Shown: in pieces, positions 8,227 to 18,930 of the stretch
How the letters are laid out: every line of letters begins with the position of its first letter
How positions within the stretch are numbered: the first letter of the stretch is position 1
Virus record (IMG/VR): IMGVR_UViG_3300000976_000009
Span: 289,144-353,143 of that record
DNA: 64,000 bases
Reading direction: 5' to 3' (one strand)
Origin: a virus
Translations under genes and position numbers: made by a program
Notes under the pieces: model-generated
Told to the model about the DNA's origin: nothing
What the model saw: the letters and a program-made list of their open reading frames with translations, nothing else
Database searches by the model: none

Positions 8227-8410
8227 AATACAAATATAAACATTAGTTTTGACACTACCAAATAAAAAGTGATTTATTTTTAATATCCTATAGTATTAAA
8301 TTAATTTGTTTCTATAACCCCTATGAATGCTACAAAGTTAAAAATAATTGAATTAAATACTATATAATATTTGGTAGAACCATAAATGTTTCTTATATTT
8401 GTAATGTCAA

Positions 8411-9175
8411 ATTAACTTATTAAGTACTAACAATGCTAAAACAATTAAAGGTGAAGGTTTAGGATATACTACATACATTATGTACTTGTCACCATATAAC
8501 CAAAACTCTAAAGGTATTAACCTTTGTAGTCACGCCTCAAAGGGTTGTGCTAAAGCTTGTTTATTTTCTAGTGGTGCGGCTCGTTTCAATAGAGTACAAC
8601 AAGGTAAGATTAATAAAACTGAATGGTTTTTAGATAACCGTGTTGAGTTTCTTAATAAATTAGATGCAGAAATTACTGCTATTGAAAACAAAAAGAAGCA
8701 CCAAGGGCAAGACGATATACCAGTAATTCGTTTAAATGGTACAAGTGATATAACATTTGAAAAGTTTAAAATTAGAGACGGTAAAAACATATTTGAATTA
8801 CACCCAAACGTACAATTTTACGATTACACAAAGAACCATTTCAGATTTAAAAAGCAATTGCCGTCTAACTACCATTTAACGTTCTCAATGAGCGAAGACA
8901 ACAAAGAAAAGTCTATGGAGTTATTGAGCCAAGGTATTAACGTTGCTATGGTATTTGGAGTACGTGACGTAAACGATTTCCCTACTACATACAATGGTTA
9001 TGAAGTAATTAACGGGGACGAAACAGATTTACGTTTCCTAGATGATAAAAACGTTATTGTTGGACTTAAGTACAAGTATATGAGTACTAAGGGTGCTAAC
9101 AACCAAGACAATTTAGATAATAACGATTTTATTATTGATGTGTCAAGTATAAAAAAATATAAAAATGTTGCATAG
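8411..9175 (+). CDS. phage gp88-like Cys-cluster protein (radical-SAM-related); start uncertain (ATT 8411 or ATG 8480)
   Basis: Cx6Cx3C, RLNGTSD and FYDYTK motifs; frame open from 8405. Confidence 0.65.
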   Translation: MNLLSTNNAKTIKGEGLGYTTYIMYLSPYNQNSKGINLCSHASKGCAKACLFSSGAARFNRVQQGKINKTEWFLDNRVEFLNKLDAEITAIENKKKHQGQDDIPVIRLNGTSDITFEKFKIRDGKNIFELHPNVQFYDYTKNHFRFKKQLPSNYHLTFSMSEDNKEKSMELLSQGINVAMVFGVRDVNDFPTTYNGYEVINGDETDLRFLDDKNVIVGLKYKYMSTKGANNQDNLDNNDFIIDVSSIKKYKNVA

Positions 9176-9300
9176 ATATGAATTGAACAGCTTGTCAATG
9201 TACATGGGGGTTAACGCCCCCTCATCAAATTAATTTAAATAAATACTATACAATATTTGGTAGAACCATAAATGTTTCTTATATTTGTAATGTCAAATTA

Positions 9301-9546
9301 ACTAAAGTTTGGTCATGGGGTGCGCATGCTTGGGTCACACATGAAGACAAATGGTTAAGGTTTAAGTCTAATGGTCACCACCATAAAGGGCATGTATATA
9401 TAACTTTAGGTTTTGACGATACCTTTACAATATACTACACCAATACAAGGGCTAAAGTTATTGATATGGTTACTGGTGTATATGTTGGGTCTTTGATTGA
9501 TACCATTGATAACAGAATTGAGCGCATAGCAAATTATAAATACTAA
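9301..9546 (+). pseudogene. start-less ORF fused directly to the promoter cassette
   Basis: 81 open codons (KVWSWGAHAW..GHHHKGHVYITL..IDNRIE) with no ATG/GTG/TTG after +1 until codon 56. Confidence 0.55.
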
Positions 9547-9552
9547 TAATTG

Positions 9553-9590
9553 AAATGCCCATAACCATTGGTTATGGGCATTTGCTTTAT
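9553..9590. terminator. bidirectional intrinsic terminator
   Basis: AAATGCCCATAACC-ATT-GGTTATGGGCATTT. Confidence 0.8.
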
Positions 9591-9666
9591 TAAATATTAT
9601 TAGACTATAGGGTAAGTCGGAGTCTACTCTTTCACCATAGGCGACCCGTCTCTGTTTCCAACTGAC
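9553..9666 (-). ncRNA. candidate small RNA B2
   Basis: promoter box 9671-9678, terminator at 9553-9590, paralog of B1. Confidence 0.6.
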
Positions 9667-9815
9667 AATACAAATATAAGGATAATAATTCATTCCACCA
9701 AATATAACTTGAAGTATTTTTATCTTATATAATATTTGTAAATTAGTTGTGATATTATTTGGTAGTTAGATATATTATCCTTATCTTTACAGAGTCAAAT
9801 TAAAACAATAAAACT

Positions 9816-10070
9816 ATGAGTAATCCAAATTATATTGTCGGTAAATTAAGTATAGCACAAATTACATCTGATAGTTTGTTATATGAAATTGAATTAGCCC
9901 TTAAAGGTCGTGAGGCATTTATTGATAACACACCAATTGAAGAAAAGATTTTTTTAGGTGATGTTTTTCAAGCAATAATTGATGAAGACAAAGTAAGTGC
10001 AAAAGCAATGGGACAACTTGAAACATTAAATAACCAAGTTGTTGAATTTAATTATATTCAGATTATTTAA
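9816..10070 (+). CDS. hypothetical early protein
   Basis: follows a promoter-leader cassette. Confidence 0.75.
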   Translation: MSNPNYIVGKLSIAQITSDSLLYEIELALKGREAFIDNTPIEEKIFLGDVFQAIIDEDKVSAKAMGQLETLNNQVVEFNYIQII

Positions 10071-10146
10071 TTTTGTAAGCATAATATTTGGTTTATTCAG
10101 ATATTATGCTTACCTTTATCAAACGTCAAATTAAATACTATATAAT

Positions 10147-10644
10147 ATGAAAGATTTTCCAACATTTGAAAAAATAGAAACAGGGATTGAATTAAATGAA
10201 GATTTCATTCCTAATTCTAATTTATTATATGATGTTTACCACAATGGTAAAACAACAATAATGGTAAAGCTTCCCGATACACCACAAAATAAAGGTTGTG
10301 TTGGGTATGACATAGCACCAAAAACATTAATTTATGATATGGACAAACCACTTAGTGAATTTACTGGTGATGAGGTTGAAAGTATTTTAGATTACCGTGG
10401 TATGAATGTGGTTGATGATGGATTTGAAGCGGCTGATGTTTTTATGGAAATGTCACACGTAACCCTTAGAGGTATTCAAATTGAGGTAACAATGACTGGT
10501 ACTGCAACTGTTAAATTAGAAGACGGTGAAACGTTAGAAGATTTAACCGAAAGATATGGTGACATATACTTACACGGTGCTGGTGAAAATGGTTATGAAG
10601 ATAAAACTGATTTAGGTGGTGACATTACTATTAAAATAGTTTAA
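10147..10644 (+). CDS. hypothetical acidic early protein
   Basis: follows a cassette. Confidence 0.75.
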   Translation: MKDFPTFEKIETGIELNEDFIPNSNLLYDVYHNGKTTIMVKLPDTPQNKGCVGYDIAPKTLIYDMDKPLSEFTGDEVESILDYRGMNVVDDGFEAADVFMEMSHVTLRGIQIEVTMTGTATVKLEDGETLEDLTERYGDIYLHGAGENGYEDKTDLGGDITIKIV

Positions 10645-10720
10645 AAATAATTCACTTTTTATTTGGTTGTTAACTTATATTGTATTATATTTGTTATGTC
10701 AAATTAAAACAATAGAAATT

Positions 10721-10888
10721 ATGATTAGAGTAGTTATTATGTCGGGAACAGCTTACGGAAAACAAGTAGCTGATATGTCAACAGATTATGATGGTGAAAC
10801 ATTAGCAGATGAAGGTAATGTTGTCATTTATGGTGAGACAGTTGAACAGATTGAAAAGGAAACGGGACTATCTATACAAATGGTATAG
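10721..10888 (+). CDS. hypothetical early protein
   Basis: ATG at 10721 after a cassette. Confidence 0.7.
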   Translation: MIRVVIMSGTAYGKQVADMSTDYDGETLADEGNVVIYGETVEQIEKETGLSIQMV

Positions 10889-10925
10889 TCCCAACCATCA
10901 AACGTCAAATTAAATATTATATAAC

Positions 10926-11405
10926 ATGAATGCATTTCAAATCAATTTACAAACGATTTTATTCTTAACTGATAATTCAGTTTTAGGGGCATATAACGAA
11001 AACAAAAAGATGCTTGTATATAACAAACCACTTTGTCAAGTTGAAACAATGAACCATATTCTAAGTGTTCTAAAGGAGAAAGGAAAAGAAGTTGTATTTA
11101 CATACCAAACTGATTCCTTTGGGGTTAATTTCTACGACCCTAAGAGTGGTGGTACTAGTGTATTCCATGAGGTAAAAGGTACAGTAGTTGAAGGAGCAGA
11201 CCCAATTGAATACAATGATATTATACCTAAAGAAGAATTTAAAGACTTCTTGAAGGATTTAAAAGAGTTGGATGGTGATGCCTATGAAAGTGAGAGTAAA
11301 GATGCGTTTTTAGATTGTTATGAGTATTGGACGGCTAGAGGTCATAATAGATTTTTAGATAAGGTTGAACTAAATAAAATGAGATTAGAAAGAGAAAAAG
11401 CTTAG
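10926..11405 (+). CDS. hypothetical early protein
   Basis: preceded by the leader motif. Confidence 0.75.
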   Translation: MNAFQINLQTILFLTDNSVLGAYNENKKMLVYNKPLCQVETMNHILSVLKEKGKEVVFTYQTDSFGVNFYDPKSGGTSVFHEVKGTVVEGADPIEYNDIIPKEEFKDFLKDLKELDGDAYESESKDAFLDCYEYWTARGHNRFLDKVELNKMRLEREKA

Positions 11406-11469
11406 TAAAAGTTTGGTAGATTAAAAAAGATTACTTATCTTTACAGAGTCAAATTAAAACTAAAACATT

Positions 11470-11736
11470 ATGTCACAAGCAGTACAATACGCACAAGGAT
11501 TTTTTTTACAATTAGATACTCATAGAAGTGGGGAACTATTAAACGCAATGCCAGTACCTACAATGATTACATTATTGAAGTTTGGTAAGCGAATGAGCCA
11601 AGAAGCCCAAGAAGAAGCAATTGAATGCAAACTATTGGGTCGTGAATTAGAAGCAAATGCAACGGCAAAGGATGTTGGAACAATACAAAAGAACTTAAAT
11701 TCATTACAAAAAGCGTATGATTACGCAATGAATTAA
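11470..11736 (+). CDS. hypothetical early protein
   Basis: follows a cassette. Confidence 0.75.
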   Translation: MSQAVQYAQGFFLQLDTHRSGELLNAMPVPTMITLLKFGKRMSQEAQEEAIECKLLGRELEANATAKDVGTIQKNLNSLQKAYDYAMN

Positions 11737-11744
11737 AACCATTG

Positions 11745-11965
11745 AAATAAGATAGTTAAAATAAAATTAATGCGCTACTGACCGAATTAAGTAGGAGGTG
11801 GATGTATAACTAAAGCAGATACAACTGCGACTTATCTTATTTCTTTATCAATTATATGGGTGGCGAGCATAGTGATATGTTTTAATTTGACACCAAAAGC
11901 AAGGACTACGAGAATTTACTTTCGTTATAAAGTCCACACCATTCGAGTACTTGCTTTTATTTTTA
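11745..11965 (+). ncRNA. structured intergenic RNA carrying an anti-leader sequence (strand uncertain)
   Basis: stems 11745-55/11833-43 and 11895-903/11950-58; CATAG..TGTTTTAATTTGACA at 11868-11892. Confidence 0.5.
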
Positions 11966-12011
11966 GTGTGTCACAAATATAGTATAACATTAATAAAACA
12001 ATATAAAATAA

Positions 12012-12200
12012 ATGGCTAAATCAACTGAGGAAATTTGTATCCAGAAAATAGAATCTGGAATAAGAGGAATTAAAAATGGTAGTAAGACACCAAAAGAAGC
12101 AAATTGCGGATTCTTTTTAAATAAACTCAAGCCATTAAATGAGGGTATGTATGACGAATTATTCGATAAGTACGTGAAACTCATGAAAGAAAATAATTAA
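12012..12200 (+). CDS. hypothetical protein
   Basis: 62-aa ORF, A-rich leader. Confidence 0.7.
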   Translation: MAKSTEEICIQKIESGIRGIKNGSKTPKEANCGFFLNKLKPLNEGMYDELFDKYVKLMKENN

Positions 12201-12204
12201 GATA

Positions 12205-12275
12205 TTAGTTCATAGTTTAATTTGACGGTTTAACTATAGCCCCCACGCCTTTGGTAGTGGGGGTTTCTTTGTTTA
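12205..12275 (+). ncRNA. 3'-UTR anti-leader hairpin followed by a terminator
   Basis: CATAGTTTAATTTGAC at 12211-12226, then CCCCCAC..GTGGGGG-TTTCTTT. Confidence 0.5.
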
Positions 12276-12531
12276 TACTAAAAATAAATGAATTAAATGT
12301 TATATAATATTTGGTAGAATGGATTATTATGTTTATATTTGTAATGTCAAATTAAATTAAACATTAGATAAAGATATTGAATGTTTTGGGTGTATGGAAA
12401 AAATGGCACAATGTGATTGTCCCGACTATTGGTATGAGAATTGTGAAAATAATGCTGAATTTAATGAAGAATAAATTTGGATGGTATTAAATATTATCTT
12501 ATATTTGTATTGTCAAATTAAATTAAACATT

Positions 12532-13071
12532 ATGAACAGAGAAAACTTAGCATACATTAGAGAATCTTTAAATGAATTAATAGTAAGCCCAACTATTCAT
12601 ATGAAACCACACAAAGCATATAGATGCATTGCTAATGGTGATGATGTGACTATTAACGGGTTTATTATTAATATGGAAGGCTTTAATTTGTTATTTGAGA
12701 ATGCACATGAACGAATAATGCGACACTTCAATTTAATTGGTCTTATTAAAGATGGTAAACCAGTTAATAAAACTACATTCAAACAAATGGCTAATACTGT
12801 TAAATACGGTAAAGGTGAAAGTAGTTTTTATGTTGCATATTTCTACACTCACCCAAAAGAATGTATGTATAGATTTGCACCTATTTGGGGTGGTGGTTCT
12901 AAAGCAGTACAAATGACTAATTTATATAACGATTTCATTGAATTGGTTAACGGTGATATGACTAATATTGATAACGATAATATTCAATTTGGTAACTGCG
13001 GTTTACCTTTTGGGGGTTACCGAGACCTAGCGACTAGATGGTTAGACCCCAACCCAAAAAGTATTTTATAA
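12532..13071 (+). CDS. hypothetical early protein
   Basis: ATG at 12532 after a cassette. Confidence 0.8.
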   Translation: MNRENLAYIRESLNELIVSPTIHMKPHKAYRCIANGDDVTINGFIINMEGFNLLFENAHERIMRHFNLIGLIKDGKPVNKTTFKQMANTVKYGKGESSFYVAYFYTHPKECMYRFAPIWGGGSKAVQMTNLYNDFIELVNGDMTNIDNDNIQFGNCGLPFGGYRDLATRWLDPNPKSIL

Positions 13072-13145
13072 TAAATGTTATATAATATTTGGTAGATTGA
13101 AATAAATTACTTATCTTTACAGAGTCAAATTAAAACAATAACATT

Positions 13146-13478
13146 ATGAAAAATTATTTATTCGCAGAAGCAGTTAAAGCCGTAATAGTTCAACAAACAA
13201 TTGATTGTGAATTACCTTCGGATATGAATGACTTAGATATTCAAGGAATATTTGAGCAAGCAACCAAAAACCTTAAAACTGATGAGGTTTACAAAAAAGA
13301 ATGTGCAATTCAAAAGTTAGGTGAATATGTTTCAGAAGAAAATGTTAGTGAAGCCTATGAAAAATTGGTAGCCCAAGCTGAAATTAATGACCAAATTCCA
13401 GTTGATAATATTATTACAATGTGGCAACCATTAGAAGATAGATATACTGTTTCACAATTAATTGAAGAAATTAGTTAA
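13146..13478 (+). CDS. hypothetical early protein
   Basis: follows a cassette. Confidence 0.75.
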   Translation: MKNYLFAEAVKAVIVQQTIDCELPSDMNDLDIQGIFEQATKNLKTDEVYKKECAIQKLGEYVSEENVSEAYEKLVAQAEINDQIPVDNIITMWQPLEDRYTVSQLIEEIS

Positions 13479-13488
13479 CTTAAACGCT

Positions 13489-13620
13489 ATGGGAAAGACA
13501 ATTAAATTTCAGACAATACAAGTCACACAGGGTGAAATACAAGATGCAATGAAGCATAGAGTACACAAGTCTAAAAAGACTTACACCCGTAAGACAAAAC
13601 ATAAAGGTAAGGGCTATTAA
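13489..13620 (+). CDS. 43-aa basic protein with an ArfA-like tail
   Basis: own translation: ..VHKSKKTYTRKTKHKGKGY. Confidence 0.55.
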   Translation: MGKTIKFQTIQVTQGEIQDAMKHRVHKSKKTYTRKTKHKGKGY

Positions 13621-13636
13621 GTTCTTACCTTTTTAT
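13603..13636 (+). terminator. intrinsic terminator
   Basis: AAAGGTAAGGGC-TATTAA-GTTCTTACCTTTTT. Confidence 0.7.
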
Positions 13637-13715
13637 TTGTAATAAATGTTATATAATATTTGGTAAATTCAAAAGTAATGCTTATATTTGTATTGTCAAA
13701 TTAAAACAAACAATT

Positions 13716-13973
13716 ATGAAGTACCAACACTTAACAAAGAATTACCGAAATTTAGAAACAGAAATATTAGCATCTTTGAGAGATGAAATAACTAAAAGTT
13801 CTGTTATGTCTAAACACACTGACACACCAGTTATATTAGTTAATGTATTTGATTATACTGAATTAGCCATTATTAATGATAGACCAACGTTTATGGATGC
13901 AAACGGTCAACATTATAGTATTTGGGCTGATTGTACTATTGAAGATTTAATTGATATTCTAAATAAAATATAA
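13716..13973 (+). CDS. hypothetical early protein
   Basis: follows a cassette. Confidence 0.75.
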   Translation: MKYQHLTKNYRNLETEILASLRDEITKSSVMSKHTDTPVILVNVFDYTELAIINDRPTFMDANGQHYSIWADCTIEDLIDILNKI

Positions 13974-13979
13974 GATATT

Positions 13980-14378
13980 ATGTATATTATAGATTTAAAG
14001 GGTAAAGAAATTAAAGTAACTGATTTGCAAGGTGCTATTGAGCAAGCGAAATTATATACAACATTTGGTGATGAAAATTCTAAAAACAATAAGTACTGGA
14101 CACATGCACTAAATGAGTTAATGAAACTTGAAGAACCAAAACCTGTTGAGGTGGAAACGGTTATTAATGGTAAAGAATTACCCCAACCAGTAATTGAGTG
14201 TAGAAAAATATTTACAGATAGTGGAACAAAGGGTTTTATTAAAAATGATAGGACACAACCTTTATATAGTATTCATAGTTGTGCTAGGTCTGAAAGAAAA
14301 TTAAGAGATATTGACATGTTAGAAATTGGTGAAAGTACAAATAATTCGACCCCTACAAAAATAACAAGGGTTTATTAG
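13980..14378 (+). CDS. hypothetical early protein
   Basis: 132-aa ORF. Confidence 0.75.
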   Translation: MYIIDLKGKEIKVTDLQGAIEQAKLYTTFGDENSKNNKYWTHALNELMKLEEPKPVEVETVINGKELPQPVIECRKIFTDSGTKGFIKNDRTQPLYSIHSCARSERKLRDIDMLEIGESTNNSTPTKITRVY

Positions 14379-14431
14379 GAATTGTCAATTATTATTCTTA
14401 TATTTGTATTGTCAAATTAAAACAACCAATT

Positions 14432-14737
14432 ATGAAATTTACAGCAACTAAAACATTCAATTTAGAAGTAATAGGAGATATACATTTCAAGTTTAACAAT
14501 AAAGGTAGAAAACCTAAAGGTAAAGTTATTCTTGTTCAAGATGTGAATATTACTACTATGAGATTAAGTATTACTAAAGAAACTGAAAAAATGTTAATGA
14601 AAGAGATGAAAACGAAAGGCTCTGATTTATTAACAGATGGTAGATTATTTTACACAACATTTGGTGATGCAATAGGTGAAATTAAACACCCACAATTTCA
14701 AAAAGAATTAGAATTACACCAAGAATTATATTCATAA
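14432..14737 (+). CDS. hypothetical early protein
   Basis: follows a cassette. Confidence 0.75.
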   Translation: MKFTATKTFNLEVIGDIHFKFNNKGRKPKGKVILVQDVNITTMRLSITKETEKMLMKEMKTKGSDLLTDGRLFYTTFGDAIGEIKHPQFQKELELHQELYS

Positions 14738-14743
14738 CATGAT

Positions 14744-14882
14744 AAACCATTCGTCTAGGGGTTAGGACATTGCGAAGGGTTGAAACACGGGTTCGAATCC
14801 CGTAATCTAATTTATTAGGTTTCGTCTAGGGGTTAGGGCACAGCGAGCGGCAAAAACACAGGTTCGAATCCTGTATGGTTTA
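14744..14882 (+). ncRNA. two-headed tRNA(Glu)-like RNA without an anticodon
   Basis: two D arms, two TTCGAAT T arms, cross-paired acceptor and anticodon stems. Confidence 0.8.
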
Positions 14883-14909
14883 CAAAAATAATTGATTAAA
14901 TAAAAAATT

Positions 14910-15113
14910 ATGAAAAGATTTATTGTTAGTTTTATTATTAATATAGTTGATGAAGATGGTATTGAAGTCGGTGAAGAAAATATTGATGTAGATATTTTTG
15001 GTACTGATATTAATGATGCAATTGCTAATGCTGATAAAAATATTAGAGAACATAATACAGAATGGGAAGATTTTTCATTTGATGTTTTAGATGTTGAAGA
15101 AATAATTGATTAA
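14910..15113 (+). CDS. small, very acidic protein
   Basis: 67 aa, strongly D/E-rich. Confidence 0.7.
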   Translation: MKRFIVSFIINIVDEDGIEVGEENIDVDIFGTDINDAIANADKNIREHNTEWEDFSFDVLDVEEIID

Positions 15114-15149
15114 AAATTAGGATAATTGAAATAATTTCATTATCTTTAT

Positions 15150-15612
15150 AGTCCGAGACAAAAATATCTAGATAGACCACTAGGAGCCCGTCATAATAGA
15201 GGTAGTAACGGCACCCCAAATAGGGTGATAGAATAAAGTACGCAAGCCAGCAGACGTGCTGGACTAGGTAAGCGGTTGGGTTACTACCAATGTATGTGGG
15301 TTCGAGCCCCATCTATTCTACGATAAGTTTAGGGTACCATACTATAAACCCTACGGTACCAGTAACGCATGCGTGGAGTGTGTGAAGCTGGTACCACTTT
15401 AAAAGCATTGAGAGTGGAGCGAGGGAGTACTGAACTACAGTCTAAATACTGGCTGGGGAAGCGAAACACCCGCCACTCTCAAAAGTATATCTTAGGGCAC
15501 CTTATGTGCACCACAGATAAAAATACAATGCAGCTGGTTACTTCATTGTTTATTGGTTATAGTGCCCCTAGTGTAGTTTTGGTTAGCTGCGATACTAGGG
15601 GCATTTCTTTTT
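15150..15612 (+). ncRNA. ~460-nt structured RNA containing a tRNA-like domain (15230-15320)
   Basis: GC-enriched, upstream TATCTTTA promoter box, many stems, terminal hairpin plus U-tract. Confidence 0.65.
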
Positions 15613-15657
15613 ACAAATAAATTTGGATTATATTAAATATTATAGTATATTTGTTCT

Positions 15658-15813
15658 ATGACAAAGAAAGCACAAGCAAGACTAGCCGAATTAAAGAAGC
15701 AAGAGCGAAGGTTATTCGATACGTACAAAACACGTAGGTCTAAAAAAGATAAAGCCGAGCACCTAGAAGAAATGGCTAAGTGCATACGTGAGCAAATGAT
15801 TTATGAAAAATAA
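15658..15813 (+). CDS. 51-aa basic protein, probably leaderless
   Basis: ATG 4 nt after TATATTTG. Confidence 0.65.
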   Translation: MTKKAQARLAELKKQERRLFDTYKTRRSKKDKAEHLEEMAKCIREQMIYEK

Positions 15814-15876
15814 GTCTTAAATTATTTGGTTATTAACTTATATTGTATTATATTTGTTATGTCAAATTAAAACACT

Positions 15877-16173
15877 ATGGATTACAGAGCAAAGAAATAT
15901 TATCGTAAGCAATTCCAAATATGGAAAGCAAAAGTAAGAGCACATTTACCTACCTTAGCAATTAAGTTTTATGAAGCAAAACTAAATGGGGTAAAGATTG
16001 ATGAACGAACAGAACGTCAATTAGGTAGAGTAATTAACGATATTAATAGCTACGAATACTCATTAGGTATTGATAGTACTAGTGAAATTGGCTTACGTGT
16101 TTTGTTAGAAATTGATGTAACAGAATTATTTGAATTTGTAAATAAAAAACTCCCAACCTTAAATACCATATAG
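15877..16173 (+). CDS. hypothetical early protein
   Basis: follows a cassette. Confidence 0.75.
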   Translation: MDYRAKKYYRKQFQIWKAKVRAHLPTLAIKFYEAKLNGVKIDERTERQLGRVINDINSYEYSLGIDSTSEIGLRVLLEIDVTELFEFVNKKLPTLNTI

Positions 16174-16174
16174 T

Positions 16175-16354
16175 ATGAGCCATATTAATGAAGATTGTGA
16201 GAATATAGGGATATACGGAAAGAACAAGGACGGAACCCAAAGAGAATGTGGTGATATGTTTGACTGCTGTGATTGTGGCAACACAGAAGACGGTTGTGGT
16301 TGTTCATATTGTTTTAGTTGCAATGCTTGTGAGACGTGTACTGATGTTGATTAA
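16175..16354 (+). CDS. 59-aa Cys-rich peptide (11 Cys)
   Basis: own translation; starts 2 nt after the previous stop. Confidence 0.65.
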   Translation: MSHINEDCENIGIYGKNKDGTQRECGDMFDCCDCGNTEDGCGCSYCFSCNACETCTDVD

Positions 16355-16455
16355 GTACACATTTGCATAGGTGCGTAAAAGAAATATAGTATAATATTTG
16401 GTAAATTCAATTATTATGTTTATATTTGTATTGTCAAATTAAAACAATAGAAACT

Positions 16456-16806
16456 ATGGCTAAGAAAACATACAAAGAAATTAAACACGTACAATTCTAT
16501 AAAGATAAGTCGTGCAAAATAATTAACGGTGGTGCAGTACACGACCTTAGAGTATTCCCAAAATTTAAAGCACAAGTGATTAATGCTTACGGTGGTGTGT
16601 TCGGAATGGCTCACAAGAGCAATAAGAATGTCGTTAGTAAGGTTGTAACGTGTCACGTTAACGGTAGAAGTGAATACTATTACCAATTAGTTGTTGAGGG
16701 TGTTGTTGCTTATTTTAAATTACTTAACACAAACCTTTATGATTTCGATTCATTAAAAGAATGTATTGAGTATGATGAGGTAAAATTTGAAGAGTATGAA
16801 GGATAA
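16456..16806 (+). CDS. hypothetical early protein
   Basis: ATG at 16456 after a cassette. Confidence 0.75.
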   Translation: MAKKTYKEIKHVQFYKDKSCKIINGGAVHDLRVFPKFKAQVINAYGGVFGMAHKSNKNVVSKVVTCHVNGRSEYYYQLVVEGVVAYFKLLNTNLYDFDSLKECIEYDEVKFEEYEG

Positions 16807-16981
16807 AACACCACCAATAAAAGACTGGACTAACGAAAGAGTTAATAAAATATTCGACTACCATTTAGATGATATGCACCCACTTGACCGATTAACAGCA
16901 AGTGACAAATATACTACGGTAGAACAAAAAAGAAATTTTTTAATTGAAGAAGAAAAAAAGTTTGTAGAAAGTTTCAAATAA
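16796..16981 (+). CDS. hypothetical protein
   Basis: overlapping start. Confidence 0.65.
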   Translation: MKDKTPPIKDWTNERVNKIFDYHLDDMHPLDRLTASDKYTTVEQKRNFLIEEEKKFVESFK

Positions 16982-17049
16982 ATTTGGTAAAACCATAAAT
17001 GTTTATTATATTTGTAATGTCAAATTAATAATAACAAAAACAAAAAACT

Positions 17050-17586
17050 ATGTTACAGATTCTAAAAAACTTAATTGCATTATTCGGAAACCTTTCTACA
17101 ATTACTGGTTGTTCATTCGTGAGCATTGTTTACACTAATAAAGACGGTGAAGTACAAAAAACATTAATTAACGTTGGTGTCTCTTATGAAAATGCAAAAC
17201 TAAAAGATATTGAGTACTTAAAAGACTTAGATGTTAAGACGATTAAGTCTAGTCAAAATAAGTCTACGTTAGAGGCTGCTAGGGTCGCTCTGTTGGGTGC
17301 TTTAGTTTCTCCTAGTAAAAGTAGAAGCGAAGGACAAAAGAACGCCTATGAATACCTTAATAACGGTCTAAAGGTACACAAAGAAACTGGTGCTTTGTAT
17401 GTGGTTGGAATGAAGGTTAAAAAACAAGTACTTGTTAAGGGTGATTACAAAGCCGATACAAGACGACCTTTAACTGTTGCAAAGGATGACATTAGAAAAC
17501 TAATGAAGTCAACACAGTATAAAAATTATAATTTGTCAGAAATGGCAAAGGTAACGATTAAAGGAGATACATTATTCTTCTCCTAG
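17050..17586 (+). CDS. hypothetical early protein
   Basis: 178 aa, follows a cassette. Confidence 0.8.
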   Translation: MLQILKNLIALFGNLSTITGCSFVSIVYTNKDGEVQKTLINVGVSYENAKLKDIEYLKDLDVKTIKSSQNKSTLEAARVALLGALVSPSKSRSEGQKNAYEYLNNGLKVHKETGALYVVGMKVKKQVLVKGDYKADTRRPLTVAKDDIRKLMKSTQYKNYNLSEMAKVTIKGDTLFFS

Positions 17587-17692
17587 TTACTAACAAATTA
17601 ATGTTGATAACTCAGTGCAAAATATGTGCTGAGTTATTTGCATAATCAATAAATATTTCGTATATTTGTATTAACAAATTAAAACAATAGAG

Positions 17693-17767
17693 ATGAAAGT
17701 ATTTGGACCGAAAGGAATTGTAATTGGGTGTGGGTTGATTGTCGTTGCTGTCCTAATACTAGCATAG
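17693..17767 (+). CDS. 24-aa hydrophobic peptide
   Basis: MKVFGPKGIVIGCGLIVVAVLILA behind its own promoter. Confidence 0.5.
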   Translation: MKVFGPKGIVIGCGLIVVAVLILA

Positions 17768-17950
17768 GGAGGGGTGGGTACACCCCCCTACGTACCCCTC
17801 CCCCCGTAAACCCTCTTATACCCCCCTCTGTGGTGGCCCTTTATATGGGCACATGATGTTACAAACAAATTTTTTCCAGAAATTTTCGGAATAAAAAGTA
17901 ACCCACCCCTATTTCCAAAAAAAATTTTAGAAAAATTTCCCACCAATTTT
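17767..17950. other. C-rich skewed tract plus A/T tracts at the island boundary
   Basis: five C-runs 17783-17826, hairpin GGGAGGGGT/ACCCCTCCC. Confidence 0.6.
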
Positions 17951-17985
17951 TTGGTTAATTAAAAATTAATCTTTATATTTGCAAT

Positions 17986-18930
17986 ATGGAATTTATTAAG
18001 AACATTAGAAAACCTTTTATATTAAGTCCAGACTTCAATATCAAAAAGGAATTAAGAATCAAGACCCAACTGGATTTTGGTAAGGTAGTATTAATACTAG
18101 ATGATTTACATATGGGTGGTGGAACATTTAAAATAAAATCAATTGAAAATGGTGACCAATTAGTAGATGAAATCATTAATGGAATGATTAATGATTTAAC
18201 TAAATCATCTGAGAAAGCCAAAAAGATTGCTAGGAAAGTAATTAAAGCGTGGGAGAAAAACCCAGAGGCATTTATTAAACAGAAAAAATCTCATTCATCT
18301 GACATATATATTAATAAGGGTTTATTAAATGATAATGACTACCATCATCATGTGTGGGCTAATTTTGAAAATTTGTCATATATGTACCACGATTTAGGTT
18401 TTTCAACTGGATGGGGTGGTGACACACATTATGCTAAATCGTATTATGAAGAAGGTATTCTTAATCTAGATAAATGGACAGCTAAACGTATTAAGGAAGT
18501 AAAAACTTCTAAAATTAAGAAGAGGATTACAAATTATCTTTATAAGATTCAAATCGAATTTAGTTTTAACCAAATACTAAAACATTTAAGTGTTGATAAT
18601 AAAACTAAAATTGTTAAAAAGAGAATACCACCATTTCCAGTTCAATTAACTGGTCAGATTATGAATGCTTTATTATACGCATGGGATAGTGGTGAATTAG
18701 AATTTGATGATGAGGGTATTGAGATATTCAATGAAGAATATGGGATTGACCTAACTCCTTTAAAGGACTGGGAGATTAATACTAGTCATGAGGGTGAACA
18801 CCACAATGATGGACAAATGTGTGACTACACTGTTGAGTTTCAATCTCCCGATGGGCATTCATATTATGCATATAACACACACTGTTTAATGACTGGATGG
18901 AATTTTAGTGACGGACCAATTAAATTATAA
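17986..18930 (+). CDS. hypothetical protein, probably leaderless
   Basis: 314 aa, ATG 4 nt after TATATTTG. Confidence 0.8.
   Translation: MEFIKNIRKPFILSPDFNIKKELRIKTQLDFGKVVLILDDLHMGGGTFKIKSIENGDQLVDEIINGMINDLTKSSEKAKKIARKVIKAWEKNPEAFIKQKKSHSSDIYINKGLLNDNDYHHHVWANFENLSYMYHDLGFSTGWGGDTHYAKSYYEEGILNLDKWTAKRIKEVKTSKIKKRITNYLYKIQIEFSFNQILKHLSVDNKTKIVKKRIPPFPVQLTGQIMNALLYAWDSGELEFDDEGIEIFNEEYGIDLTPLKDWEINTSHEGEHHNDGQMCDYTVEFQSPDGHSYYAYNTHCLMTGWNFSDGPIKL

Follow-up and report, generated by a model that had tools for sequence, protein, structure and literature searches.

A conserved phage RNA predicted to fold into two nested, strand-swapped tRNA-Glu cores without an anticodon

Described tRNA mimics and the element in the window

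Permuted and intron-containing tRNA genes, known from archaea and algae, include permuted tRNA halves and mature to decoding tRNAs, and the tRNA-like domain of tmRNA has the tRNA shape without an anticodon. The RNA described here differs from the former in that it cannot mature to a decoding tRNA, and from the latter in having no mRNA-like region. It is encoded by a phage gene of 139 bases at 14744-14882 on the (+) strand of the window, by which we mean the whole 64,000-nucleotide stretch of DNA analysed, and it is predicted to consist of two tRNA-Glu cores that exchange strands, so that acceptors and anticodon stems close by pairing between the copies. Canonical phage tRNA-Glu shares with it the T arm, the variable region AAAC and the D arm GTCT/GGAC with GG in its loop, but it has an anticodon arm, its strands are not swapped between two cores, and it carries G1.U72 in 46/52 genes with the same D loop, where this RNA has A1-U72.

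Two described RNAs are partial precedents. YrlA (RF02553) is, in the accessible text of its description (PMC4201824), also phage-borne and without an anticodon, with the anticodon stem as a stalk, and it has the same permuted order of T arm, closed acceptor and D arm (T-AS-D) that we find in the inner head of the window RNA (14783-14844). Whereas the stalk of YrlA ends, according to the same text, in a Ro60-binding stem (PMC4201824), that of the window RNA is predicted to lead into another complete tRNA core, one whose acceptor is free. The shared T-AS-D order would suit a Y-RNA-like scaffold, in which the stalk would tether host Ro60/Rsr or another protein, and the heads would serve to dock a nuclease or to make the RNA stable. 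The sequence TGCGAAGG, just 5′ of the inner T arm, is one base off the motif GNCGAAN0-1G, and a TROVE (Ro60) gene in a control Bacteroides genome suggests that a host could supply Ro60. Yet the exact motif was found in 0/13 stalk strands, and the purine-rich internal loop GAAGG/GAGCG to which the earlier note drew attention, while present in the window copy, is not kept in sequence among members. RF02553 gave 0 matches at E<=0.001 in the complete phage genome that contains the window (G000), and none up to E 10 in window 14600-15700. TROVE genes, which a bacterial Y RNA would be expected to have within about 4 kb, were found neither in G000 (0) nor in the carrier records (0/16, most of them incomplete), and the second tRNA core sits where the Ro-binding stem would be. 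Without an Rfam match, exact motif or Ro60 gene, identity with YrlA was rejected, and the scaffold reading appears unlikely to us.

The other precedent is RNA2 of phage T5 (NC_005859 32959-33083), which carries the annotation ‘tRNA-like stable RNA with unknown functions’ and lies, like several relatives of the window RNA, in a phage tRNA cluster. Like the window RNA, it has an outer acceptor, a D-like arm and a T arm, and a stalk with a second T arm replaces the anticodon; it differs in having no tRNA-Glu core and, in its inner unit, neither a D stem nor a closed acceptor. T5 RNA2 scored 32.3 bits against our covariance model, the same as ordinary tRNAs, so we treat it as an analogue and do not claim homology. 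T5 was not among the best 20 of 94 or the best 40 of 600 blastn matches listed. The T4 species 1 RNA (rnaC), equal in length at 139 nt and with a T arm, was rejected as unrelated, having one T arm, no Glu D arm and another fold. The earlier note knew of no described RNA with this topology. Nor did a tRNA mimic with two heads turn up in our own literature search, which covered older and subscription work thinly, and such an RNA is not mentioned in the accessible passages of the allo-tRNA paper (PMC5389517) or the Lacusarx paper (PMC5648845); the YrlA inner head and T5 RNA2 qualify the statement.

When the stems named in the earlier note were re-read from the sequence, every coordinate and strand proved exact, including those of the outer acceptor, the capped inner acceptor that makes the inner head permuted, and the swapped anticodon stems (Table 1); the T stems ACGGG/CCCGT and ACAGG/CCTGT were both found as claimed. 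The two tRNA-Glu-like bodies correspond to a 55-nt repeat that is 82% identical between the cores. The earlier note has neither copy folding alone; taken as tandem tRNAs, the copies pair just 2/7 positions in each acceptor. ARAGORN, Rfam and the parse of 13 members described below agree that there is no anticodon: we saw no 5-bp anticodon stem, no 7-nt loop and no UUC/CUC anticodon. ARAGORN found 0 tRNA genes in the window, and an Rfam scan of the window returned nothing at gathering score, with sub-threshold tRNA scores of 19.7 and 15.3 bits for the two halves. An ARAGORN intron call, tRNA-Thr at G000 303802-303955, was discarded; it combines the first T arm with sequence further 5′ that does not belong to it.

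Table 1. Parts and immediate neighbours of the two-headed RNA (window coordinates)
Feature	Position	Strand	Remarks
Promoter-like motif TTAG...TATATTTG	14375..14405	+	Bacteroidota type; one of a repeated family
101-aa ORF, upstream	14432..14737	+	No PHROG match; absent from homolog loci
Outer acceptor, 5′ strand	14744..14750	+	AAACCAT (14744-50), with ATGGTTT (14875-81); A1, where canonical phage tRNA-Glu has G1
Outer head: U8-C9, tRNA-Glu-type D arm GTCT/GGAC, AGGGGTTA loop, A26	14751..14769	+	
Stalk strand 1: TTGC, GAAGG, GTTG	14770..14782	+	TTGC (14770-73) with GCAA (14850-53); GTTG (14779-82) with CAGC (14841-44); no anticodon
Inner head: AAAC variable region (4 nt) and T arm	14783..14803	+	
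Inner closed acceptor: 7 bp and TTTA cap	14804..14821	+	AATCTAA (14804-10) with TTAGGTT (14815-21); permuted head
Inner head: U8-C9, D arm GTCT/GGGC, A26	14822..14840	+	
Stalk strand 2: CAGC, GAGCG, GCAA	14841..14853	+	
Outer head: variable region AAAC, then T arm	14854..14874	+	
Outer acceptor, 3′ strand, then discriminator A and CAA	14875..14885	+	
67-aa acidic ORF, downstream	14910..15113	+	No PHROG match

Relatives and comparative support for the nested fold

A pattern joining a tRNA-Glu core to a short anticodon region returned 19 viral loci, 3 of them two-headed, and further patterns, which covered the first half and the start of the second D arm, returned 7 viral, 9 metagenome and 2 genome loci. 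One of these 18 was a chance match and the other 17 comprise 12 distinct sequences; 11/12 have another T arm and an outer acceptor that nests around the rest, though the pattern required neither. Together with L122 and the window copy, these 11 make a set of 13 distinct members, so that the window RNA has 12 further relatives, mostly phage sequences, and the loci span 30-58% G+C. L142 (a chance match) and L155 (with a divergent second T arm) were excluded from the counts, and conservation of the tRNA-Glu D arm among members was partly imposed by the search patterns. In the cultured Sphingobium phage Lacusarx (KY629563.1), a member at 67125-67271 occupies an unannotated gap between tRNA-Pro and tRNA-Val. 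Another lies in a Methylovulum miyakonense provirus, and a third on a contig of a Woesearchaeota bin, which may be mis-binned phage because its neighbours resemble those of L141, L143 and L154. Several members are located within tRNA clusters, and promoter-like motifs stand directly 5′ of L153, L149 and L141/L145. A first exact-motif scan (120 of about 160 loci) gave tRNA-Glu genes of the ordinary kind, none of them two-headed; when the window element, L145 or L327 was compared by blastn with 50,697 phage records, no record spanned 80% of the query; and Rfam on the window and five homolog loci gave no family, with weak tRNA matches to L149 and L144 only. Nearest-neighbour comparison of the half sequences was compatible with one origin or several.

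A motif-anchored parse covered all 13 members and allowed the nested fold to be compared with its alternatives, using shuffle counts that ignore relatedness and hence are not probabilities. The outer acceptor was paired at 85/91 positions, against a fraction of 0.46 with swapped partners (0/5000 shuffles), and the two cross helices at 34/39 and 38/39 (0/5000 shuffles each). For the inner acceptor, the first four base pairs were paired at 44/44 positions in the 11 members that have that stem. Pairing was 42/77 and 40/77 for the two tandem acceptors and 29/39 and 27/39 for the two self hairpins. Tandem acceptor 1 (14/5000) and self hairpin 2 (39/5000) were slightly above shuffles, which we read as a trace of an origin by duplication. 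Among seven members picked for low relatedness the cross helices still exceeded shuffles (40/5000 and 7/5000). RNAalifold without constraints, on 11/13 members, returned the nested acceptor and both cross helices with a covariation term of -9.21; it did not return the inner acceptor, whose length varies. In the 11-member alignment (A2, which omits L140 and L141) the full structure was paired in 98.1% of 370 cells, and in at most 52.7% when slid. Cross pairs were 92.4% paired with 19 two-sided cells (0/500 shuffles), and two-sided compensatory changes occurred in 6/6 cross pairs counted, so that the refuting outcome named in the earlier note, a lack of such changes, did not arise. Self hairpins were 68.2% paired with 5 two-sided cells (138/500 shuffles), so they show no two-sided covariation above shuffles.

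The MFE fold of the window RNA is the one that the earlier note proposed, but its stability is at chance level (z -0.55): 58/200 shuffles fold as well, the ensemble frequency is 0.0023, and pair probabilities are at most 0.5, with cross stems below 0.1. With cores fixed and strand bases shuffled, the 14 acceptor pairs all form in 1/200,000 shuffles and the 8 cross pairs in 12/200,000. Given the marginal thermodynamics of this copy, support for the fold is comparative and not energetic. Stalk strands of 6/13 members are self-complementary, with self hairpins 0.3-3.5 kcal/mol better than cross pairing; cross pairing is the lower-energy option in the other 7/13, and it alone would give each head normal tRNA connectivity. 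Taken together, the two-headed nested fold is well supported.

These comparisons also bear on the reading that the element is a tandem of tRNA-Glu genes in decay, or a tRNA gene with an intron whose removal would yield a normal tRNA. The likeness of the halves fits such an origin, as do the slight excess of tandem acceptor 1 and self hairpin 2 over shuffles and the existence, at L166, of a true tandem of single heads. Every nested helix nevertheless shows compensatory changes; this covariation excludes decay and supports the earlier view that the element is a selected, structured RNA and not two decayed tRNAs. G000, moreover, already carries four tRNA-Glu genes. As for an intron, splicing would rebuild neither U33 nor a common anticodon across the 13 members, and the junction is a symmetric 5x5 loop with no bulge-helix-bulge, as we take that motif to be. 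We therefore regard decay or splicing as very improbable.

Conserved features, genome context and the wider class

What members keep is a pair of D arms and a pair of T arms, variable regions of 4 nt and the outer acceptor helix. The stalk strand is 11-13 nt long, and the second strand is likewise so in 11/11 members from patterns that left it free. Outer and inner acceptor sequences vary freely among members while pairing is maintained, and position 1, A1-U72 in the window copy, is AU in 6/13 members. Both heads keep U13.G22 and A46 and lack nucleotide 47. In the accessible part of PMC9976931 these are major Glu identity elements, and the strong GluRS determinants U34, U35, C36 and A37 are placed in the anticodon loop; all four are missing from the two-headed RNA. 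One could thus imagine a tRNA-Glu-specific sponge that binds GluRS or another reader of tRNA-Glu via the Glu tertiary core while remaining uncharged, and it fits with this that 17/41 distinct matches to Glu-core RNAs with a single head and a short arm passed the acceptor filter. U11-A24, however, is replaced by U.G in 4/11 outer and 3/11 inner heads, the Glu D arm was imposed by the search patterns, and one- and two-headed equivalents on non-Glu D arms, described below, are more numerous, so that such a sponge seems improbable.

The missing anticodon determinants (PMC9976931, accessible part) count against a ligand of the ribosome or of a translation factor. In that reading the outer head, CCA-ended and charged or uncharged, would bind to a tRNA site of the ribosome or to EF-Tu while the second elbow touches another ribosomal element, and stress signalling or translation in the host would be modulated as a result. 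Such a ligand would account for a complete outer acceptor, T arm and D arm with a tRNA-like 3′ end, for a stalk of fixed length and for the placement of several members inside tRNA clusters, and the copy in Xanthomonas phage RTH11 encodes CCA. No acceptor identity pair or sequence is conserved, though, and the stalk and second head should not fit the decoding site; we judge this reading unlikely.

The ends of the RNA suggest how it may be processed. The RNA ends in ACAA, as T-arm elements within the tRNA region of this phage most often do (20/75), and G000 encodes a CCA-adding-family enzyme, which together make tRNA-like maturation of the outer end likely; a CCA enzyme was found in 0 of 14 other records searched, mostly fragments. 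The accessible text on M. smegmatis YrlA reports that its closed 7-bp acceptor is cleaved by RNase P and CCA-tailed (PMC4201824), and a possible RNase P site lies at 14814/14815 in the inner closed acceptor of the window RNA. The statement in the earlier note that there is one free acceptor end is therefore uncertain for this copy, whose 7-bp inner stem may be cut to give two free ends and a strand-swapped two-piece dimer. The family as a whole does not need this: the inner stem has 7 bp in 4/13 members, L135 and L144 (2/13) have a linker of 4 nt in its place, and the inner acceptor is dispensable. Co-folding the two hypothetical RNase P pieces of the window RNA gave a different MFE. Such cleavage would also take place under the proposal of a processing or stability cassette, where tRNA folds punctuate or protect an early transcript at RNase P and 3′-trimming sites and the RNA is a by-product. 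The element does sit between two ORFs, 6 nt past the stop codon of the 101-aa ORF, and its closed acceptor resembles the RNase P substrate of YrlA (PMC4201824, accessible text). Relatives, on the other hand, have promoter-like motifs directly 5′ with no ORF between, one head would be enough for this purpose, and the variable inner stem and the co-folding result both argue against it. We think it improbable that the RNA is a by-product of this kind.

G000 is a complete phage genome of 353,143 bases with terminal repeats and 31.7% G+C, and it has 65 ARAGORN tRNA calls and a tmRNA, the latter away from the element. No RtcB was found in it. The element, at genome 303,887-304,028, is distant from the main tRNA clusters (about 146-209 kb) and is single copy, scoring 123.5 bits where all else is <=49.9 with a covariance model built partly from the window element itself. 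Small ORFs follow one another around it, and among them stand repeated promoter-like motifs that match what we take to be the Bacteroidota promoter consensus, from which we infer an early region and a Bacteroidota host; a scan for sigma-70 promoters gave no more matches than chance would (18 vs 17.9). The motif listed in Table 1 would drive both the 101-aa ORF and the RNA, and the 67-aa downstream ORF is probably not part of the element. No conserved neighbour protein is common to the window and the homolog loci, and 15/17 flanking ORFs have no PHROG match.

Other features of this genome were seen in passing. Window 8341-17990 contains 10-13 copies of a 44-77-nt promoter-like repeat preceding small ORFs. 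A second odd tRNA-like element at window 15228-15322 (+) has acceptor strands TAGAATA/TATTCTA, an insert of ~20 nt before a D-like arm, then a hairpin resembling an anticodon arm, and finally a T arm, and it scores 15.9 bits with the Rfam tRNA model; it lies within an ORF-poor structured stretch of ~450 nt (15150-15600) and has its own promoter-like motif at 15117. Irregular tRNA-like elements that keep the T arm and acceptor with altered D or anticodon arms occur at G000 146066-146165, 195142-195253, 206291-206365, 265170-265232, 274120-274230, 275490-275950 and 285310-285415. Two ARAGORN tRNAs are possible stop-codon suppressors, one with anticodon TTA and a Glu-type body (188241-188313) and one with CTA at relaxed score (about 151233-151306).

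As our patterns had demanded the Glu D arm, we repeated the test with GCTCAG, a common D arm. An estimated 820 or so viral stretches have this arm with a short anticodon region. In the 121 loci fetched, 89/109 distinct matches have 6 or 7 acceptor pairs, and 46 of those 89 are only 3-4 nt below normal tRNA length. Five distinct two-headed RNAs stand on GCTC/GCTT-type D arms (L344, L387, L413, L327 and L371), and in L344, L387 and L413 the cross stems are 5+5 bp with compensatory changes. The cultured Xanthomonas phage RTH11 has a two-headed copy with CCA encoded at its end. A strict parser had found 0 nested RNAs among 120 non-Glu loci, and a geometric search then recovered them; the latter missed 6/13 Glu-type members (the window copy, which was unscanned, and five loci). 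Recurrence on GCTC-type D arms and in RTH11 argues that no amino-acid identity is needed. On the sequences compared, the two-headed topology is a recurring build and not Glu-specific.

Heads also occur singly and in chains. Tandem single heads, the expected precursor state of a two-headed RNA, are found in L166 and at G000 165729-165887, and two permuted heads form a chain in L155 and L301; the head census behind the chains includes some chance matches in ordinary tRNA pairs and is used qualitatively only. Loci L205-L325 stand for hundreds of phage genes that encode single-headed tRNAs with acceptor, D and T arms intact and shortened anticodon arms, often alone before ORFs. At G000 165729-165887 (+) there are two tRNA mimics with truncated anticodon arms, of which the second is built on a Glu core; their T loops are TTGGAGT and their D loops have GC where GG is usual, as if the elbow pair G19-C56 had been swapped in a compensatory way. 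L162 2940-3170 (+) has two adjacent permuted Glu-core heads in a larger RNA just 5′ of an ORF whose start presumably resembles peptidyl-tRNA hydrolase Pth2. Chains and variants of permuted GCTC-type heads were seen in longer phage RNAs at L383/L301, L359/L261, L402, L444, L436 and L375. At L449 1347-1484 (RTH11) and L344 1323-1472, another two-T-arm RNA stands immediately 5′ of the two-headed RNA.

A possible role as a bivalent decoy

That the tRNA shape is kept while decoding and identity are lost, and that extra elbows have been repeatedly favoured, suggests to us a decoy with two binding sites, on which host proteins that recognise the tRNA elbow, the T arm or the CCA end would be occupied. 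We put this forward tentatively, as the reading we prefer at somewhat less than even confidence. Under it, a single-headed short-arm tRNA-Glu mimic would have been duplicated in tandem, with strand exchange following. An early host-type promoter would drive transcription, and the outer end would be matured by RNase P, 3′ trimming and CCA addition, like the phage's own tRNAs. The two elbows would then give avidity for oligomeric binders, and the targets occupied would most plausibly be tRNA-cutting defence nucleases, early in infection. The earlier note had pointed to nucleases that cut anticodon loops; this is the least natural version of a decoy, because the RNA has no loop for those enzymes to read, and readers of the T loop or CCA end should fit better. 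Candidates of both types have been described: in the accessible text of PMC13462974 the Cash nuclease is an oligomer that cleaves T loops of many tRNAs, and the sources on Cas12a3 and Cas13, as far as accessible, have them cutting the CCA tails of tRNAs.

Several observations weigh against the decoy. A T-loop cutter would consume the RNA, which must also compete numerically with abundant host tRNA, and the Cash structure, in the accessible text, binds the anticodon and T loop of one tRNA and not two elbows (PMC13462974). The fold of the window RNA is thermodynamically marginal, self hairpins outscore cross pairing in 6/13 members, and there is no shared neighbour gene. The probability left over beyond the decoy and the alternatives weighed above belongs to mechanisms that we have not thought of.

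The two-headed RNAs are a conserved family with an architecture that we have not found described, and a variant of tRNA-mimic RNAs. They provide a natural, nested and strand-swapped double tRNA core that is missed by tRNA finders and has no Rfam family, held by covariation in phages of very different hosts and recurring on unrelated tRNA scaffolds. A broader proposal, which we find somewhat less probable than the decoy itself, is that phages have repeatedly converted tRNA genes to anticodon-less RNAs with one, two or more elbows, forming an unrecognised class of RNA anti-defence factors that would act as multivalent sponges on oligomeric immune proteins directed against tRNA; the form with two tRNA-Glu heads would be one of at least three separate builds, and T5 RNA2 would belong to the same functional class. 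The cultured carriers Lacusarx and RTH11, with the T5 analogue, make the function of phage ‘tRNA-like stable RNAs’ and pseudo-tRNAs testable. If these RNAs do blunt tRNA-targeting immunity, they would represent an RNA-based counter-defence beside the known strategy of replacement tRNAs, and even otherwise they show what the tRNA shape is under selection for when it no longer decodes.
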